Assembly: GCA_977020255.1 (NCBI GenBank)
Contig: CDROCS010002188.1
Coordinates: 124,001-188,000 of the forward strand
Direction of reading: 5' to 3'
Length of the DNA stretch: 64,000 nt
DNA from: Obrimoposthia wandeli
Lineage: Eukaryota
The notes beneath the pieces are model-generated. The model was not told where the DNA came from. It worked only from the letters and a program-made list of their open reading frames with translations, and searched no databases. Positions 68 to 33,813 of this stretch are shown here, piece by piece. Positions within the stretch are counted from its first letter, which is position 1. Each line of letters starts with the position of its first letter. Both the position numbers and the translations under genes were made by a program.

Positions 68-2565
68 CCCATTATAACCCATTTTCAATTTGTTTTGATT
101 TTTTAAATGATTTTTACAACAATTAAGTTTAAGAAACATTTTGTACTAGTCAGAATTAATTTACCTCAAAAAATAACCGAGATATGGGGTGATCTCATAT
201 GAGATCACTGGGATAATAAGGTACTAAATGTATAGTTAATTCAAACAAAAACACGAATTTTTAAAAAATGTATTGACAAGCTATTACATTCTGTGGTACG
301 GTAAAAAAACAATCGACACATTAGGTGATATTGCATTTTGAGCAATATGTTCTTGGTCGTGAAGAACATGGCTTGTTTTGACATCTTTTTTGATGATCCC
401 GTTTTCTTATAATGTGACCTTTAGAGTCGAATCGAATACTTCGTTCATTTTTTGATGGTCCTGGTACTGATCTTTTTCAACCAAGCTGACATCTAGGACT
501 TGCCAATTTTAAATATGACATGGTAATAGCTCTTCTAAAAGACAACAAATCCATAAATTCTTTTGGATCATCATGTACTTATTTGTATATTATCCATGAA
601 TTTACCACTGCCATATCAATAATACGAGTAAAAAGAGGCCAATACCACTTTTTACCTCGAATTGATGTTGAGTATTTATTTGCTAACCAATCATGTTTGT
701 CAACACCTCCCATGTAAACATTATTACGTTGTACTTTTATTAATGGCTCCATTATGTCGTAATTAGTCCCAACAATTACACATTTGTTATCAAGCCATTT
801 AACAATTAGAATTTCCTCATTCGAGTCAAATCTATAGTCGTATGACCCTCTTTTCTGTTTTTTCATTTTTTTGATTCGATCAACTGACAATTATTTAATC
901 TATTTTCACTGATTGTCCCAGTTGCTTGAAAACCAAGGTTGCGAAGGTGTACATATTATCATTTTTTACATATTATTTATATCCGGAAACAAATAATCAA
1001 AAAATACTGTATGTGATTGTGGTCTTTTTACTACATCCAACATATTTAGTACAACTTTAGAGCTCAAAAAAAGATTTGCCCTTTTATCATCGTGGTGCCT
1101 TTACCACAATACAGATCGAAATTGTAGCAGTAGCCAGACATACCACATAATGCCCAAAGTTTGTACCCAAATTTTACAGACTTTCCTTTTATAAACTGCT
1201 TAAAAGTATTGTGGCCAAAATATTTTACATATATTTTACCCTCTTCAAACATCCCAAATTTCATAAACCATTTTTGTGTTGCTGATATCAGTTTTCGGAT
1301 TTTGAATCCTTGATCATATTTATTGTTTACTGCATCATCATTGTCACAAAAATGTATAATATTTTTCAATGTTTGAAATTGGGATTTTGTCATAGCATTC
1401 TTTACAACTCGTATTCCAAAATATTTATCATTTGACCAGTAATTTTGTTCTGACGGCAACTTATGGTATCCGGAAAACATATATAAATATACCTGTAAAT
1501 TTTTTTTATGTCCTCTAAGTTTATTGAAATATCCATTTTGTTTTACATAATTTGGCATACCTAACAGTTTCTCTTATTATTAAATCATATATTTCCGTAG
1601 AAAATAATTCCTCAAACAATTCAACTGAAGTGAAAAATGCATGTTTTTCTTTCTGGTCCTTTAAATTTTTATTATATGTTTCCTCCCGTTTATATCCCTT
1701 GGTATGTCTAGGTTCCTTATATCTCTACATTGGTATTGAATCACAAAGCTTTCTTTTTTTCTATGCAAAGGCGTATTTTTAAGATTTTAATAGATTGATT
1801 AAAATTTAATTTAATATTATTTCCTATCACTTGGCTGCCAGTTGAATCATCCACATGCAATTCCAGTATACCTGGAACACCTACAATTATTGCTTCTGCA
1901 GTACATTCGTCATCGGAATCGTCTTTGTCTATTAACTCATCTACTTCGGGAGGAATAATATATCAATCTTCAACAGCGTCCTCCATCCTAACTTTGATCT
2001 CATCCAATGTCAAAGATTTGATACGTAGATGTGACATGTTTGTAAAATATTTAATTAAAAAGTAAAATTAAAAATGATAGTTTCATTTATTTATTGAGAA
2101 TTATGCAGACTTATGCAGACTTATCGTATAATATATATTTAATCCCCTATTAAAATCATTACGTAATATGACTAAATACCCTACATTATCTCAGTGATCT
2201 CATATGAGATCATTAAATTGTAACAACGTTTTGTCTTGACATACAATACATTCTCATGTATTTTAAAAAGTACATGATTACTGTGTTTCTTATTTATTAG
2301 TCGAACTAAAATTCAACTCGTTATTTTAATTTATGCTAAATACACTCTATTTATACTACCATCCATTATTTTGAAATTTTCAACATTTTAAATTCATGTT
2401 TTGACCAATTAATCTGTTTAAAATTATTAAATTAGTAACGTATATGTATAGAAAACATGTATTCTATTTGTAAAATCTATAAAAAAATACATAAATCTCT
2501 ATAGTTGCTTCACAAAGTATCCTTTTATGGGGTGATCTCATATTATATCACTGGGTTAATATGGG
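68..2565 (-). mobile_element. piggyBac DNA transposon, full length, defective
   Basis: TTAA at 64-67 and 2566-2569 flank the element. Terminal inverted repeats CCCATTATAACCCA (68-81) and the reverse complement of 2552-2565 (CCCATATTAACCCA) match 12/14. A decayed piggyBac transposase lies inside. Confidence 0.85.
284..2037 (-). pseudogene. piggyBac (PGBD/DDE_Tnp_1_7-type) transposase pseudogene
   Basis: ORF pieces 1064-1558 (KQFIKGKSVKFGYKLWALCGMSGYCYNFDLYCGK) and 579-890 (VKWLDNKCV...YMGGVDKHD...KKWYWPLF) are typical PGBD motifs. The C-terminal Cys-rich domain CQNKPCSSRPRTYCSKCNIT*CVDCFLPYH ends at TAA 284-286. Probable ATG at 2035-2037 with an acidic IIPPEVDE N-terminus. Multiple stops and frameshifts. 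Confidence 0.9.
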
Positions 2566-3624: not shown

Positions 3625-4111
3625 ATGACCACAAAAGCACGTCAGCGAATCGAGTCAACACATTCATACGGGAGTCAGAAGTCCAAGTACCGTAGTCTAA
3701 TCCAACTTCGCCAAGATATTGGGGTCGTTGAGGGTGTGAGCATCATCATCGGTATCATCGTTGGTTCCGGTATATTTGTGTCACCGGTTGGAGTGCTGAA
3801 GTACACCGGTGGCAGTGCCGGTCTGTCATTACTGATGTGGCTTATAGCTGGCATCTTCAGCTTGACCGGTGCACTTGTGTGGGCTGAGCTGGGCTCCACC
3901 ATTCCGCGCAGTGGTGGCGAGTACATATACATCCTCAAGACATTCGGTTCTGTGCCAGGCTTTGCTTGTCTCTGGATCACATTCGGCTTGATCGGAGCTG
4001 TATCCACGGCTGCCAATTCGATGATATTTGCTCAGTACGTTCTGCAGCCGTTCTTTGTGGGCTGTGCTGCTCCACACGCCGCTGTCATGATGATTGCTGT
4101 GTTTGGAATAC
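3625..4111 (+). CDS. SLC7/LAT-like transporter coding exon 1 (TM1-TM4)
   Basis: ATG 3625; MTTKARQ...GIIVGSGIFVSPVGVL...AELGSTIPRSGGEYIYI...LQPFFVGCAAP...VFGI; donor C|GTGAGT at 4112 (phase 1). Confidence 0.95.
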
Positions 4112-5599
4112 GTGAGTGGATCTTATGTCTATTCATATTGTAGGTGAGCCCACAAGATATATATCAATGTCGTTGTATGATTCAGCTAGATATATTTATG
4201 ATAGCAAAATTAAATTTAAAATTTTCATTTATCAATAACTTTTATTAGCTAATATTACTGCTAATGCAACTGAACTATTTATCTGTCTTTGTTCTATTCA
4301 TCTAAATATAACAGTGATAACATTACCAAAGATTATTCCGTCTAGTATTTGTGTTTATCAGTAATTATATAAAGGCTCTACTTTAAATATATGAAACTCT
4401 AAATATTTAACTACGATAATAGCTGGTACTGATGCTTTATATATTTAAATTTGGTACTGTGTTCCAATGTACCATTAAAAACCCTTGTGGATATTTATAA
4501 TATTTACCTTCGTAAAAGCTAACTTTCTAATCGGTGATATACTTTTAACTGAATTTTACTTTGCTCATTATCACCAGAAAGTTATTACTGAAACATGAAA
4601 AGAGAAATGGTGTTAATTGGCCAATATACATTAAACATATGAAACTAAATTGAGTACATATTCAGAATTCTTCATCTCCCATTTTAATAATTAAATGAAA
4701 GTCATGATTTTTACACTTTTAATAAGGACCAATAATTTTATTTTGATTTAATTGAAATTAAAATATCCGAATATATAGCAGACATAAAGTTTAAAAAATA
4801 CCGTGATAATAAAGGCGCTAACTTCGGAAAAAAATTCAATTTGATTAATATAGAAAATTTAAATAAAATTTTAATATAATAGTTTATTTGTAATTAAGCG
4901 TTTGCAGAATTCTGAATAAGTTGTACATTTTAGTGCTTCGTCAACTTTAGGTCTTTCGGAATACCAAAATTAATCTATTCCGAGAGTTGTTGCGATTATA
5001 CGGAGCCTGTTAATTGATGGAACTCAGTTTAAATTTAAGAAATCAATGATAACTGCAGCATATTTTCTTTTGAGCAACAACTGCAGTTTATAATGTTGTT
5101 TGTCTGCAGAATTGCAGTATTTTATTTTCACTTTCCAATTTAAGATAAACTGTTGTTTCTTAACTTCAAACTTCATCAATAAAAAATTATTTTTATTCGA
5201 TTTATTCTAAAAAACATTAAAAATTTCCAGCGTAAAAATTTTCCCTCGGCTTTTATAAGGCCTGGCTTGCCAACACAAGCCAATCCCCTGACCAGGCCCC
5301 AACTGCTAATTGTAGTGGTCGCTAGGCCATATCTCATCTGGGGATTGGCTTGACAAGCAACATTTTCACAATGCACTTTATATGCCCATTCCGTTCTTTT
5401 AACTGCTCTATAGAATTATGTGTTGTGACAATATTAAAAATTTAACTTAAGTTTATTGTAGAAAAAAAAGAAAAATAATACTATATATATATATATTACT
5501 ATATATAATATAGCTTAGGATTACAACCATTTTTAAGTGATTACATTTGCTAAAACAATTTAAATAGTGTACCTGTACTTGAAATAAACTGTGTAAATT

Positions 5600-6492
5600 A
5601 ATGAAAATTATTGTATTAACATAATGAGAATTTAGGAGAATTGATAAACTGAAGAAAACTTTTCAAGAAATTAACATCCTTCCATTTGAATGAATTTGCT
5701 GTTAAGTGACATAATTGCTTTACTGGAAATTCCTAGATTCAGCTCCTCTTTTTGATGCTTCCTCAGAATAGGGCAACTTATTTATGTTCCTTTTTTGTCA
5801 GTAATCCCATTTGACTCGCGAGTTATATGAATAACAATCTGATGAGGCAATATTTCTCTGAAAAATCACTCTTAAACAAACATACCAGTGTCTATATTCA
5901 GAACTAGGATTTTTTTCCCTAAAAGAGTAGTAGTCAACTAGGAGTTTAATATATCACTTGACACTGTAACCACAATTGTTTTCCTCTCAAATATACAATC
6001 GAAAATAATAATTTCTTCACAGTTACTCTAGGAATATAATAAATACATTTGAAATCCAGTATCGTTTCTATGCTGATGACAGTATTTCAGTTTATCAATT
6101 AAATTTTAATCAAATTTATAATATCAAAAAAATCAATAAAACTGTCAAAATTAAAGAAACTTTCTAGTACAAGTGAATATATAATGAAGCTACCGATCAA
6201 TGCCAGATTCAAGGTCCCATATATTATCAAAAAATATTCTGTCACGACAGCGCAAATATTTATATATGCATCGATGAAGAACGATGATGAATGTAAATTG
6301 GTAAAAGGATTCTCTAATTTCAAACAGAATGATAAAATATTTGAAAATTTTGTTTTAAATCTTTACATAAATTTACTGATGAATGGTAACTTTAACAATG
6401 TTGATAAGTTCAAGAAGCAGTTGAAGACTTTTCTATTCAGAAAATATTACGGACAATACCTACATTGGAAATCAGGAAGCTCTTTTGAGTAA
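5600..6492 (+). mobile_element. decayed non-LTR retrotransposon (CR1/L2-like) RT 3' fragment
   Basis: FYADDS (YADD codons 6069-6080); a degenerate AFDTV-like motif near 5955; C-terminal FKKQLKTFLF in ORF 6184-6492, typical of LINE ORF2 ends. The left boundary is approximate. Confidence 0.6.
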
Positions 6493-8777
6493 TAAAACAT
6501 AAATTTATTATATATTAGCGCTTTATGAAATATGTTATCATTATAAATGCTATTGTTAATTCAAGGCCAGATTTCAACAACTTATCATTGTGCAATCTTC
6601 CTAGATTTTATCAAAACATATTACGGGCAATTATGAAATAAGAGAACTAAAAAACTCTACGTATTAATTATAAATACTCGATTAGAGTATAAAATACTTT
6701 TAATAATTCAAAAATGTTTTGTTTAAAATGAACCTCCATATTTGATTAAATATTTATATGATATATTCTGGAAATAATGCAATATTATGTTCGATTATAT
6801 GTGTTTATCGCTTTTTTCATTTTTAAATTCGATTTATTAAATATTTTGAAATTACTTAATTTCACCAAACCCTAAAAGACACAATATTTAAACAATAAAA
6901 CAACGTATTAATTTAATAATTTTATGTATATTTAATACTCTTTTGGAGAGCTGTTGATATTTTACCAGTGTTGCTGACAATTATTTTTAAAAGTTTTGGA
7001 AAATAATGAAGATTTGTGATTTCCATTTCGATAACATCCCTTGAAAGTTTCCTCAAAGTAAAGCATATTTTAATTCAATAATCATTTTATCTTGTCTGAA
7101 CAATTTAACTTTGTCTTAAATGATCACAGATTGTTTAAGATTGTAAATCTTCAAATGTGCCAAAAACAAAATAATTTCTATAAGTAGTCTCCACTTCAAA
7201 TCGATCAGATTTTCCCTTGATTTCGGCCGGAGTCAATTTGACCGGGTTCCCCTGTTTCATACATTATTGTTCCAACTGACCGGCTTCTTTGATACAAGTG
7301 TTCTCAAGACCACCTAAATTGACGTATGCTGTGTATTAGTGAGTCAACAACTGTTTGGAGTGAGTCACATCGACTTGAGCTGGTAAAGAAGATGTAGCAG
7401 CGTCAACAACACCAGTCCGCCACAATTCACGTGGGTATTGCTGAAACGTGCTACAAACAAACTGGATCTTTATCAATTCGGCAAGTGGTCATTCACGAAG
7501 GCCTACACCTCTTCAATCGTCTTCAACTTGATTCATCTAATCCTGAACTCGATTTTCAGTAAACATTAAACAACAGCTTAACCTTCCAAAGTTTCAAATA
7601 AACAAATATACTTTCAATTTCACTAACATTCAGCATTAAAAAAGACTTCATTTTTAAAAAATGACAAACAGCAATATTGAAAATTATGCAAAACTAAAAT
7701 AGAAAATCTTATAATTTAATGTCCTTAAATCTAGAATTTGTGTTTTCAAAAACGCATATGAACATAACTTAATTTAAACAAATCAGAAGAAAATTAAAAT
7801 GTCATAAAACATATTTTTGATTCATAACAAAAACTATTCACATTTTTAGTGTTTCTTATAATATTCACAATTTTAGTGTTTTTTATAATATTCACAATTT
7901 TTTTATTACAAATTTTAAATGGCTATTCATCATTAGACAATGTGAGGCCGGAATGTTATAAAGCAACTCATATAGCTTTGATATTAAATCTTATTTGGAT
8001 TTAAATTTGTGTACCACCAATTCATATTACTACAATAAAAAACATTCTTGATGGGGTACATGTTTAAAGAAATTAAAATATAGCATTTTAAGTAGCACTA
8101 ATTTTAAATTCAACTTTATTTAAAGAATGTCAAGATTGTTTTGATGTTATAAGCTAAAATAAGCACCTTACATGACAGAATAATTGTATTCAATAATTAT
8201 ATAGATACCTTAATAAATGTTTTAAATGATATTTGTATAACATAAATGATGAATAGTATAAAATTTTATGCAAAAGTCTGATAAATTTCTCAACTATTTT
8301 AAAGTTTTAGTTAAGTAACATGTATTATATATAAAATTAAATAGCATCAATATAATATGTAAGTAAATTTAAAAATGAATCAAATGTGTATTTGAAAATA
8401 GAAACCAAACAAAAATAAAATGGTTACAGAAAATATAACAGCTAAACAAGAAAACTGTCCTGCTCTGTACTTGGAGATAATCCTAAAAATACAAAACAAG
8501 ACTGACAATTACCTTTATCAAGCCACGTCTTATATATAAGTTGAGCCAATCACATTACGTTTAAAATTGAGTCTCACAGGCAGAGAGTTATGTGATTGAT
8601 CCTAAAAGACATAAATAAAGCCAAAGAGAACCACAGTGTGTACAGGCAAGATGCAAAAGAATAAAAACACATAGAAATACAAAGTAAAAGGGTAAGTAAT
8701 ACCCCGAAGTTCACATTTACCCGTCACGTTATGACTTGATGCATTAGGTGGGAAAAGCTTTTATTTCAGTCAATGGG

Positions 8778-9500
8778 TTACTTTGTGAAGATGTTGCTGC
8801 TCCTGGTAGGCGCGTCTGTCGGATTACTGTCCTTACGAACGAATTGTATGCGGATTTTATTGATAGTGCACAAAACTTTGACTCCAATGAGTATCCACCA
8901 TTTTGGGTTGTTTTTGGGGATGCGACGATTCCTTGTGCTCCAAAAGAATCCCAAGTTGTCACAAAGGTTAACACAATTTTTTGCCGCAATCCAGAGGGCC
9001 CAGAGCAGGGCTTTGGCTTCCTGAATATAAATATTATTGCCGGAAACTCTCTCCGCCATGACTGTCTCTCGAAGTGGTTTTGTTTGAATTACTACAATTG
9101 CTTCTTTAGTCGCACCCGAGGCCTAAACCTTGTGCTTCTTTCTTCTCCACTGCCAAGTGGGTGCATATTTCTTGCGTGCCATGTTTCAAGTCATGTTGCA
9201 AATAATGGACAATAAAGGGCCACTTTAGCGCATGGGGTACATAATTCAAGAACCCGGGTGCGTCATCTCTATAATTAGCCTTTCCGACGATTTCATTGCA
9301 TGTTTGCCATTTTTGTGTTGGAATTCGTGACTTCTGGAAAGTGATTTGGAGATTCCATTCTCGAAAATAGTCAGTGATATGGTCCCAGTGTTGGGCTGCT
9401 GGTTTGGTAATTATCACTATATCAACAATGTGCACATGCACCATTTCGATTTGCCACAATTTCTGAAACTGCTTGATTATGCTCGTGAGAATAAAGTTTA
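8778..9500 (-). mobile_element. decayed RT-RNase H fragment, hepadnavirus/HEART-like or DIRS-like
   Basis: Frame 9459-9106: VHVHIVDIVI (YIDD degenerated to HIVD), WNLQITFQKS, PGFLNYV. After a frameshift: ASGAT (9108-9122, DAT-like), IYIQEAKALLWAL, LCDN, IQFVRKDSNPTDAPTR, then stop at 8778. Confidence 0.7.
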
Positions 9501-9539
9501 TTTATCATTTTAAAGCTTATAAAGGGGATCTAATCATCT

Positions 9540-10100
9540 ATGTCACGGGCTGCAGATACTATGTAACTATATGTATCAGAAATTTCCCACCGATAATGGT
9601 AAAGAAACAGTCATTGAAAAAAGCTCCATCCGTGAACGAGCATTAAACCATTTTAAATTTGTTGTTAAAAGTGACTAGGGATAAACATTCTATTATGATA
9701 CTGTCGAAGTTTTCATGAAACTTCAATATTTTATCTATAAACAACTACAAAGAATTACAGTCGAACTGGTGTAGTGTGAACATCAAAATTTGAGAAATTT
9801 TTATGGTAAAGAGTATTAAACCATCAACTTTTTAGTTTTCAATATTTATGGCTTAAACGTTTTCTCCTTGACAACTGCAACATAATAAAAATTATACAGG
9901 TACTTTTACAAATGTTAAAAGGGTCATTTTGTATATAAAATTGGAAATGATGACAAAGTCAGAGCTTTGAACAAATCCAATGTTCACTTTATGGGGCTTA
10001 ATTACATAACAAAATCTAAAAATAAGAATTAAAATGCCATAATTATAAACGTTTTCGTTAAGCAAGTGTTCACGTTATTCAGGTTTGTTTGTGCTAACAA
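9540..10100 (-). mobile_element. probable hAT transposase relic
   Basis: The minus strand reads ...IIIECLSLVTFNNKFKMV*CSFTDGA (xDGA motif of hAT transposases). Heavily degenerate; boundaries approximate. Confidence 0.35.
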
Positions 10101-10224
10101 CTTATATTTTTCTATTTCATAATAGTTATTATGGAGATTTTATTAACCTTTTCATACGAAAACTTTCAAATTATATGAAAGTTCGTCATGCATTGAGGGA
10201 GTTGACCTTCAAATGACCTTGCAG

Positions 10225-10350
10225 TGACCTTATCTGCTATCAATTGCTACAATGTAAGCTGGGCCACGAAGATCGCAACCTTCTTCACCATCTGCAAAGT
10301 TGCGGCGCTTCTTATCATCATCGTGATTGGTGCGGTGTACCTAATTCAAG
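10225..10350 (+). CDS. SLC7/LAT-like coding exon 2
   Basis: Acceptor TTGCAG|; (L)TLSAINCYNVSWATKIATFFTICKVAALLIIIVIGAVYLIQ(G); donor G|GTTGGT; 126 nt, phase 1 to 1. Confidence 0.95.
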
Positions 10351-12117
10351 GTTGGTGACCAAGTCTACGAAACTCTAACAATGTGACCCTACCGTTTCCC
10401 CATGAACAAATCAAGGTCTTTCAAAGTGTACATATCTAAAACATTGCTTAACAATTTTAATATCACATTATTTCCAATACGAAGCCGTGGTGTTTTATAA
10501 ATTTCAATTTGTTTTCAACAAATCTGCGAATAAAAATTGATTATTACTGTTTATGATATATTTATTAAATGTTAAACAGTTTTACTGTTGATGTTGTGAA
10601 TGGAATCCTGTTTCTTTTATTAAATTCCCTAAGGACATCTATCGGTGAGTAACCAAATAACGTAATATTCAATAATGTTTATTCTGTCTTAGATGCATGT
10701 TCTATTTATTCTAAATGCGTTGTATTCTACAACATCATATCTTCTTAACAAAGTCACATATCACGACAGCAGTTTTCCTCAATTAATCATTAAATTCATC
10801 ACACGTCGACAACGTCTATCAACAATATCACAAACTATAGCTGCAACACGATGTCTGGTTATTATATAGCCAGGCATTCACACTGGCGCACACGAATCAC
10901 TTTAAAGTGCAGAACCTGGCCTCTAATTGATCTGTCTGGTGTCTCTGTATGTGTGTTTCCCGATATTACATTGCAGTTATTGGAATTATTTTGTATTTAA
11001 TAATTGTATAGCGACCTATTGTTGATATGCAATTAACAGCTTAACATAATTAAGTATTATGAAATTTATTAATGCTAAGCATCAAAATTAGAAATTAAAA
11101 AGATAACATTAGAAACAATCCAATTAATAACAATAACCACAAGAACTTTCAAGACAATTATTATAATCAACTTTATAATTAGTGTTTCTTGAGTTATTTA
11201 TTAAATATTCTGATAATTTGTCACTTCGTCAACCTTTGTCTAGTCTGATAAATTTCAGCCTGTTTGAATTTGGTCAGCTAATTGATTGCTGATTACACTG
11301 ATTAAATTTGCTTAATCAGCAATCAATTGTCATGTGTAAAACTATAAATAGTTTTATACGGTAAAAATTGTTACTTTCAGTATAATTTATAAATACCGCT
11401 ATTTTTTAATTATAACAATTAAAATTGTATGCCATCAATTATCCTAAAAAATAAGATTATTTTAGAAATAAAATATATTCATCTTTCCAAGTTTTTGTAA
11501 TGGAAATATTTAATAAAAATATTTCTTTCATTTTATCACCAGTGCAACATTTTAAAAAATTTAAAACATGTTTTTTACTAATAAAAATATGTAGAAAATT
11601 GTAATGTATATAAAATTAAAATAATACCATATGATGTTTGTGAATGATTTTAAATTAACTCCATTTTTCAGTAGCGTTAAGTATTGAAAATGTTTTTTCG
11701 CTGCCGTTTTGCTAAAAATTATCTAAATTAGTCAACAGTTCAGAGGACCCTAAGAATATATCAAACTGAAGTCATTCAACTCGTTTCTTGTTTACATAGA
11801 CAACAATCTCTGACTATTTCATTTAACTGACTCTGAATTATTAACATAGGTTCTCTAGATATTCACTTTTCATAATCTGCATTCTTAATATCATTTTCTA
11901 TAATTATCTCTTCATTAGCGACCTCCGATATAAAAATTTACAAATTAAAGTGGTAACTTTATTAAATAAGTATAAAAATATTAAATTAATTTTTTAGAAA
12001 GTTATGGTGCAGTACAGTTATTTTTATCGTAATCAGGATGCAAAACTATTCCTAATAAACTAATTTTCATGAGGGAAAATTTACATGTTGTATTGTGTGT
12101 TTGAAAGATGATTTTGA

Positions 12118-32527: not shown

Positions 32528-33813
32528 CAGGGTGCGGAGAAAGTTCCCGATCGAATTTTGAAAATTGAATTAAAGATATTATTATTTAACTAAATTATCC
32601 ATTTTTGGCTTATTTTGTTTGTAGATACATATATTTATATGTTTCAGATCCAAATTTCCTAAAATCTAATTTGCATTTGTTTAAAATGAGTAAACGTGAG
32701 GTCATTATCCAACTTCATTGCGCGGGAAAGACGAACCCAGAGATTGTTAAGATCTTAAAAGCTCCAAAATCAACAGTTCGGGAAGCAGTAAACCGATACA
32801 AAGAACTTGGGACACCAGACGATCGTCCCAGAAGTGAACGCCCCAGAACTGCTCGCACCCCAGCCAAACTAAAGGCCGTTAGGGAGCGAATAAGGAGGAA
32901 CCCCAAACGAAGAATGAGGAAAATGGCCAAGGACTTCAAAGTTGACGAAAAAACTGTCAGAACTATTGTCAAAGATGATCTCAAGTTATCCCCTTTCAAG
33001 ATGACCAACAGACAACAACTGACGGAATTGCAAAAACAGAAGAGGGTCGAAATAGTCAAGATTCTCCTGAACCGAAAGAAGGATGGCACGGATGCTGAGG
33101 TAATTGTTTTTTCTGATGAAAAAATGTTCACTGTTGAGGCCCAGTTCAACTCGCAGAACGACAGAATTTTAGCTAAGAGTGCTGATAGCATTCCCAGTTC
33201 GGTAAAATCCGTTTACCGTCGCCAAAAACCTAGCTCGGTAATGGTATGGGCTGCCATCTCTGAGAATTGGAGATCCTCGTTTTTGTTAAAGGGTGCCAAG
33301 TTAGCAAACTCGTACATCCAGGATATTTTGATTCCAGCCCATGTTGAAATGAAGAAACATTTCCAAAAATGACCCTTTCACATTCAACAGGACGGTGCGC
33401 CTCACACTACGAACAAAACTCAGGACTGGTGTGAGAATCACTTCCCAGCTTTCTGGAGGAAGGAATTGTGGCCTCCTTCATCACCTGACTTGAACCCTCT
33501 GGACTTTTGTGTCTAGTCCATCTTGGAGAGAGAGGCCTGCGCTACAGCCCATGACAATACAGAAGCTTTAAAGAAGTCTCTTAAGCGGGAATGGGCCAAA
33601 ATTTCCCAGGAATTCTTTCGTGCCGCAGTGAAGAGCTTCCGGGGGAGACTTGAGCGTGTAATTGAAGCCAAAGGCGGCCACATTGAAAAATAAATAGTAT
33701 AAATGTTAAATAGAGCTCTAACAAATTGTGTGTGTTATTTTTTGTTTAATTTCAACCTTTATTAGTTGTTAAATTTAACGTTTTATGAGATCGGGGACTT
33801 TCTCCGCACCCTG
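32528..33813 (+). mobile_element. Tc1/mariner element, maT (DD37D-like) family, full length with intact ends
   Basis: 25-bp TIRs CAGGGTGCGGAGAAAGT(T/C)CCCGATC match 24/25; TA on both sides (32526-27 and 33814-15); 1286 bp. Confidence 0.95.
32686..33693 (+). pseudogene. maT-type transposase pseudogene
   Basis: MSKREVIIQLHCAG...RPRSERPRT...VFSDEKMF...VMVWAAIS; in-frame TGA at 33370-72; QQDGAPH...WPPSSPDLNPLDF (36 aa between the 2nd and 3rd D, consistent with DD37D minus one codon); second stop TAG; final GGHIEK* at 33693. Confidence 0.92.

Follow-up and report, generated by a model that had tools for sequence, protein, structure and literature searches.

A HEART-like retroelement family of the flatworm Obrimoposthia wandeli with putative hepadnavirus-like priming signals at its ends

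The window analyzed, a stretch of 64,000 nucleotides from the assembly of Obrimoposthia wandeli (contig CDROCS010002188.1, positions 124,001 to 188,000), contains one SLC7 gene that spans positions 3637-61148 on the plus strand and has at least eight coding exons. The best named matches of its first exon are flatworm proteins (52-59%), in line with the flatworm host suspected from the letters alone, and its exons at about 3637-4110 and 10224-10352 (+) flank a retroelement copy, for which an intron setting had also been proposed. Two further frames of the window, at 579-1573 (-) and 32590-33372 (+), resemble what we take to be remnants of piggyBac and Tc1/mariner transposases. The retroelement copy, located at 8477-9501 of the minus strand, is dead and 5'-truncated, and its parts are listed in Table 1. 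A previous sequence-only reading, made without database searches, had described it as a hepadnavirus- or HEART-like fossil of a reverse transcriptase (RT) plus an RNase H at 8778-9500. All the motifs that it quoted lie where it had placed them, on the minus strand and in two frames; its limits proved too short, since the frame reaches 8724 and non-coding 3' parts extend to 8477.

Table 1. Features of the relic copy and of the intron that contains it (window coordinates).
Position	Strand	Feature	Basis
4111..10223	+	Intron of the host SLC7 (L-type amino-acid transporter) gene, with the copy in antisense	Flanking exons; borders approximate
9163..9501	-	RT palm and thumb remnant, 5'-truncated, with a 22-codon internal deletion and a degenerate catalytic motif	35% to unbroken family polymerase
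8724..9173	-	Next frame: end of the thumb, remnant of RNase H and tail at the C-terminus, with in-frame stops at 9123-9125 and 8778-8780	43-50% to family RNase H
8603..8723	-	Non-coding 3' stretch, rich in T	Sequence; family counterparts
8543..8602	-	3' stem-bulge-stem hairpin, about -101 to -41 of the family map	Family covariation; z -2.1 in this decayed copy
8529..8536	-	TATA box; the start-like site follows 31 nt downstream	Kept across subfamilies; putative function
8500..8505	-	Second start-like (CAGTC) site, opening the 30-nt terminal redundancy	Motif at which full-length copies begin
8477..8484	-	Terminal motif, DR1-like and decayed; the relic's 3' end	Family 3' ends stop here

The relic pieces alone gave no match in Pfam or PDB. 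Searched against the 1.35-Gb genome, the RNase H piece gave 1,947 candidates, 150 of which were scored and all 150 matched; besides the match to itself, these show 42-60% identity and E values down to 2e-34, while the RNase H region reaches at most 35% (41 bits) with any non-family row. The relic aligned with an unbroken polymerase of the family over 9501-9163 and 9173-8727 (E 9e-56), and its DNA matches to the family end at about 8494-8475. It lacks the 5' two thirds of the element, has a frameshift near 9170 in addition to the in-frame stops given in Table 1, and its RT and RNase H catalytic motifs are degenerate. Because its DNA is only 60-75% identical to that of other family copies, it is either old or a member of a rare subfamily. 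The internal deletion suspected after the residues KS is real and in frame; the motif lost with it is a primer grip of the YCG type and not FLG. The palm motif had been derived from YIDD, which does not hold for the family, where the first residue is His and not Tyr: HIDD was found in 44, HVDD in 10, HIND in three and YIDD in one of 58 matches, so that H[IV]DD is present in 54, and the YMDD of Blubervirales was not found among them. The spacing from DN to the last D is 48 residues in the relic, as had been noticed, compared with 40 in the hepatitis B virus (HBV) row. The copy is indeed a fossil, but it does not stand alone: the family has very many copies, a part of which have unbroken frames, and its informative part is the non-coding ends.

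A set of 140 element loci and 20 control stretches was taken from the genome. Genome-wide, 2,201 RNase H and 1,196 ORF1 candidates were found, which are candidates and not copy numbers; the lower count for ORF1 indicates that 5' truncation is frequent. The full unit has 2,724-2,755 nt (approximately 2.73 kb), and seamless arrays show the same spacing. It contains ORF1 and, overlapping it in the +1 frame, an RT-RNase H polymerase (Pol) of about 740 amino acid residues, without a conserved AUG. ORF1 has 250-270 residues from stop to stop, with an acidic N-terminus, a helical middle and an RG-rich tail. An ORF1-Pol fusion was considered and discarded, given that the one long frame of two copies arose through the loss of single bases, at a different place in each; overlap in the +1 frame is the usual layout. 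Pol matched RVT_1 (E 6e-19), and two of the three unbroken Pols matched the hepadnaviral RNase H profile PF00336 weakly and below the cut-off (E 6-8e-4), while a search of the genome with this profile gave four matches, two of which are family members. Since eight full units hold no plus-strand frame besides pieces of ORF1 and Pol and no minus-strand frame longer than 187 amino acids, the element has no integrase, recombinase, protease or envelope gene. A tyrosine recombinase or an integrase in intact copies had been named beforehand as a finding that would speak against kinship with hepadnaviruses; the full units encode neither. Furthermore, no endonuclease, poly(A), target duplication or RT of the non-LTR or Penelope class was found in the family, the tree described below being built without these RT classes. 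Pol is under purifying selection, with a dN/dS of 0.04-0.05 in the two pairs with measurable dS and saturated dS in two more pairs. Very recent copies, with identical terminal redundancies, are also present. A search of the genome with PF00589 gave 104 bacterial-looking matches, and many unbroken phage-integrase genes were seen on contigs such as C253, C506 and C1802, several of these genes on multi-megabase contigs, which suggests that the assembly includes bacterial contigs.

Reference rows for the RT plus RNase H phylogeny were 17 hepadnavirus records, Toolik virus and tick-HEART-type proteins (one from Ixodes persulcatus), together with DIRS- and Gypsy-type proteins labelled by motif. A total of 83 rows were aligned; 60 entered a larger tree and 34 a smaller tree and the AU tests, fragments and near-duplicates being dropped, and the relic was placed by BLAST, outside the tree. 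The 34-row tree groups the family with hepadnaviruses, Toolik virus, tick HEART and metagenomic rows (99/98), with the DIRS-type rows separate at 99/95 and the Gypsy rows also apart, and the 60-row tree shows the same split between hepadnaviruses and DIRS (98). The nearest neighbors of the family are metagenomic rows (91/94), and in the free tree it is not the sister of the tick HEART rows. None of the forced groupings was rejected by the AU test, with p values of 0.148, 0.294, and 0.30 for the family with DIRS, hepadnaviruses and tick HEART, respectively. The relationship to Blubervirales advanced in the sequence-only reading is supported by the 99/98 branch, the PF00336 matches and the lack of a recombinase. 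The phylogeny which that reading had called for sets the family on the hepadnavirus and HEART side with the DIRS-type rows apart, although the AU test does not reject a grouping with DIRS. About 40 metagenomic RT-RNase H proteins (among P0001-P0158) belong to the same broad clade; they show DAT and NPADxPxR motifs and acidic N-termini, and several of them sit on contigs of 2.5-3.8 kb. Judged by these sequences, the metagenomic relatives form a wide, undescribed HEART-like radiation, and the family appears among them as a lineage of its own, not as the direct sister of hepadnaviruses or tick HEART.

The predicted model of Pol has a pLDDT of 86 and matched many RTs. Compared with a model of HBV P, it gave an rmsd of 5.7 across 400 columns, and none of the other listed matches with 400 or more columns had a lower one; when the Foldseek results were sorted by E-value, the top rows were caulimoviral or unnamed and HBV P ranked 12th, and the best TM-score was 0.55, to a target of 634 residues. 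The N-terminal extension of Pol, upstream of the RT, is confidently folded in the model and shows an invariant Tyr, which a T3-like helix follows after approximately 65 residues. In the duck-virus rows, the distance from the Tyr of the GLY motif to the T3 helix is about 80 residues. In a profile comparison with the terminal protein (TP), the T3 helix alone aligned, over 16 columns and with a probability of 1.3%, which is not significant. PF00242 gave no match to the family Pol, and the candidate priming Tyr is not kept in the metagenomic relatives. Homology of the extension with TP is only suggestive. ORF1 shows an SxTIGW turn followed by the RG tail, which by eye resemble the core motif regions of proto-nackednaviruses. 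Its profile score against hepadnaviral cores was 14.5, a value reached by 4 of 100 block shuffles; no sequence homologue of ORF1 was found, nor any fold match in BFVD with its model (pTM 0.35). Homology with cores is likewise suggestive, and ORF1 is probably a core- or Gag-like packaging protein.

To map the element ends, the conserved CAGTC site was set as position 0. On this map, a hairpin extends from -101 to -41, the position of the TATA box is -31, and the last letter of a GATAAT-type motif falls at about +29. Between subfamilies, this end block shows 75-85% identity, compared with about 65% for coding DNA. The 3' hairpin is supported by covariation across 40 rows (89.5% of cells paired, 78 double changes, many G-U pairs, 0/500 shuffles). 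Of 83 3' termini with TATA box and start site retained, 82 do not pass +34, and 53 fall within +23 to +34, in a mapping with four mis-anchored rows, with extensions under-called in copies without close relatives, and with loci chosen by RNase H matches, which biases it toward intact 3' ends. The single terminus beyond +34 is a fold-back junction, and 3' ends are often nibbled by 5-25 nt. At the 5' side, 26 rows retain the start motif ahead of the stem-loop; the first position is 0 in 17 of them (12 independent) and -60/-62 in three (two independent), while six are over-length, running seamlessly on from an upstream 3' end. The mapped 5' and 3' ends therefore define a typical full copy that extends from 0 to +29 and has a terminal redundancy of 30 nt. 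The starts at -62, where CCAG is located and two independent copies begin, fall inside the 3' hairpin. No exact DR2 was found: upstream of the TATA box, the terminal motif does not recur. A class of copies ending in the 3' hairpin was also considered and is weak; five of the loci (L025, L138-L140 and probably L099) share one flank and count once.

Empty sites were obtained for 10 of 43 loci: nine show target deletions of approximately 4-680 nt and one shows a 3-nt overlap. Neither poly(A) nor a fixed target duplication was found at the element junctions examined, and together with the target deletions this fits the capture of linear DNA at breaks. Self-comparison of seven copies showed only direct redundancy and junction fold-backs; terminal repeats of the inverted or split kind were not seen, nor was an internal complementary region. 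Arrays of two or more units are present, as are redundancies of 84-372 nt. At three over-length junctions, the joined halves are 80-89% identical, and because some are only this similar, joining of separate linears explains the arrays as well as circles do. Copies of different subfamilies adjoin or join seamlessly head to tail at L079, L081, L121, L122, L082 and L376, a pattern that suggests either joint capture at a single break or joining across the terminal redundancy. Inverted, fold-back duplications are frequent right at the element ends (L033, L037, L040, L071, L088, L137 and L382). Contigs of four runs from one sample cover the element, with loose ends at the junctions of L030.

Targeting of Maverick/Polinton elements was rejected: Maverick genes are present in 10 of 20 and in 49 of 100 element loci, and equally in 10 of the 20 controls (L141-L160, arbitrary 10-kb stretches). 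The genome is extremely Maverick-rich. The five loci with a shared flank represent one element insertion multiplied along with its Maverick flank, so that Mavericks can carry the element passively. The summed contig depth of a Maverick flank is hundreds of times that of the element. A Gypsy-type element at L024 and L038 shows additional frames, putatively assigned by their motifs as dual-specificity-phosphatase-like, long membrane-protein-like and RING-like.

A conserved element about 70-100 nt downstream of the start forms a 5' stem-loop (about +80 to +150). It consists of a GAGG/CCTC stem on the outside, a stretch without pairing and an upper stem. The upper stem shows double changes in seven of its eight pairs (25 rows, 89% paired, 0/500 shuffles), the two-pair lower stem as drawn is 56% paired, and the stem-loops of single copies fold weakly (z -0.7, -1.5, and 0.0). 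The unpaired side carries the 3'-terminal motif: a common string of at least 7 nt was found between the DR1-like and stem-loop windows in 17 of 20 copies, compared with 1.8% of 4,960 background windows. Furthermore, two copies of subfamily B have a T-rich form of the motif at both sites, one B copy has an extra T at both, L382 has an A-to-T change at both, and L374-L376 show a 10-nt match between stem-loop and terminal motif; in L384 the match is absent. As read from the DNA, the ends appear laid out like those of a hepadnaviral pregenome, with a TATA box, a start-like site, the 30-nt redundancy and a motif-bearing stem-loop. The HBV primer is templated by the epsilon bulge and then moved to DR1 at the RNA 3' end (PMC8454683), and a rotifer proto-nackednavirus has a redundancy of about 33 nt with DR1, and epsilon downstream (PMC12691608).

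We consider it fairly probable that the family uses epsilon-templated priming and transfer to the DR1-like terminus, giving mainly linear DNA that is captured at breaks by end joining. The RNA would start 31 nt after the TATA box and have a length of one unit plus at least about 30 nt. The polymerase would bind the 5' stem-loop and copy a few bases of the GATAAT-type motif, probably onto a tyrosine of its N-terminal extension; the primer would then shift to the same motif at the RNA 3' end (DR1-like, +22 to +29), and the minus strand would be made back to the cap site, the RNA being removed by RNase H. The usual product would be linear DNA from 0 to +29, often 5'-incomplete, which host end joining would insert into breaks, leaving target deletions, nibbled ends and fold-backs. 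The promoter, predicted to lie at the 3' end, would be regained before a full unit only by circularization or by head-to-tail joining over the 30-nt redundancy. The few copies starting at -60/-62 resemble cohesive-end linears and may reflect the circularization route, and new RNA would come from the over-length and tandem copies. More tentatively, the family may be an intermediate between retrotransposons and hepatitis B viruses, integrase-less and primed on its own protein from an epsilon-like stem-loop, with ORF1 forming a core-like shell and with over-length or tandem copies in the chromosomes.

Alternatively, the copies would be dead-end endogenous relics of infectious, non-enveloped, hepadnavirus-like worm viruses, with the same chemistry of epsilon priming and circular templates, but with replication only in episomes and particles and no progeny from integrants. 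The genome size and the two-ORF layout are like those of nackedna- and proto-nackednaviruses, whose cores ORF1 resembles by eye in its GW turn motif and RG tail, and the short contigs of several relatives, an integration pattern equal to that of HBV linear DNA and the strong purifying selection also agree with a viral past. We nevertheless regard this explanation as unlikely, since in our judgement about 2,200 candidate matches in many subfamilies, recent copies and promoter-restoring arrays exceed what accidental relics would leave. Moreover, no core fold was found for ORF1, and scans of viral, metagenome and genome contigs showed no free genome of the family: they yielded Toolik virus, 17 hepadnaviruses and one HBV contig, and none of 171 screened loci was a family member. 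Less probable still is reverse transcription primed at breaks from a chromosomal 3' end, as in endonuclease-less Penelope elements, with the stem-loop acting only as a binding or packaging signal. Such copying would leave the identity and co-variation of stem-loop and terminal motif unexplained, and the enzyme has an RNase H, of hepadnaviral type; the fixed 3' wall, frequent 5' truncation and inversions are what it would produce, but the 3' ends are often nibbled and fold back, and poly(A) is lacking. It also agrees with a 3' promoter driving a downstream tandem unit and with the lack of a significant TP. An origin as a DIRS/PAT-type element whose tyrosine recombinase was lost, and which is mobilized in trans or accidentally, is very improbable, for although the AU test does not reject a grouping of the family with DIRS and the helix-GW-helix of ORF1 presumably recalls a DIRS-type Gag, the DAT and NPADxP motifs of RNase H and its PF00336 matches, the 99/98 branch away from DIRS-type rows, the lack of a recombinase-sized frame in the unit, the lack of inverted or split terminal repeats or an internal complementary region in the copies compared, and the imprecise junctions all stand against it.

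The proposed priming from the stem-loop and capture of linear DNA can be set beside known systems. Gong and Han are said to have defined HEART elements in 2018 as lacking an integrase and LTRs, and the family has neither. It also shares with HEART an RT and RNase H on the hepadnavirus side and many genomic copies, and differs in its full units with a second ORF and defined cis-elements. Tick HEART rows (PMC12691608, supplement S4) have His at the first palm position in five of seven rows and, as in the family, upstream HLTxHLP and LTxF..YxFTRLP stretches; however, they show LPFG and DN, whereas the flatworm family shows LPMG and H[IV]DD and is a separate lineage. The nackedna- and proto-nackednaviruses (Toolik, Pliego, RTPV, RMPV and RNDV) resemble the family in a size of about 3 kb, overlapping ORF1 and Pol, the lack of envelope and spacer, a redundancy of about 30 nt, a DR1 after the TATA box, a stem-loop downstream of DR1 and an RG-rich ORF1 tail. 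They differ in YMDD, a recognizable TP with GxY, DR1 equal to DR2, a recognizable core and an episomal life; in the flatworm family TP and core are only suggestive, no DR2 is evident, the TATA box has an additional 3' hairpin before it and many copies are integrated. Integrated HBV and DHBV linears (dslDNA and cohesive-end) likewise have their ends at the start of the RNA and at DR1, the redundancy being longer in a minority, and show NHEJ/MMEJ-type junctions with deletions (PMC8454683); HBV integrants are somatic dead ends, whereas the over-length and tandem flatworm copies would keep a promoter before a full unit. DIRS, PAT and Ngaro elements share a Gag-like ORF1 overlapping RT-RNase H and the lack of protease and DDE integrase, and differ from the family, which has no recombinase, other RNase H motifs, other termini and imprecise junctions. 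The family is best described as a new HEART-like lineage, the priming of which is most likely hepadnavirus-like; it is not placed in Blubervirales, as DR2 and YMDD were not found and the homologies with TP and core are only suggestive.

It is a current proposal that hepadnaviruses arose from HEART-like retroelements (PMC12691608), and in a 2025 paper the mechanism of HEART mobilization is given as unresolved, and HEART samples as few and often mutated (PMC12440569). No report of a flatworm HEART, or of an epsilon-like element in HEART, was found in the literature searched, which left Gong and Han 2018 and Repbase outside. The family extends HEART-like elements to flatworms, and its many full-length and subfamily-diverse copies lead to concrete predictions on the start and end of the RNA, the first bases of the minus strand and a protein-linked 5' end. 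If the proposed mechanism is true, protein-primed reverse transcription would be older than hepadnaviruses, and animals would have a route of retrotransposition without integrase, recombinase or endonuclease. If the family is in addition an intermediate between retrotransposons and hepatitis B viruses, epsilon/DR1 priming would predate Blubervirales and be common to a wide radiation of elements of about 3 kb. The mechanism would also explain the spread of this puzzling class of elements.
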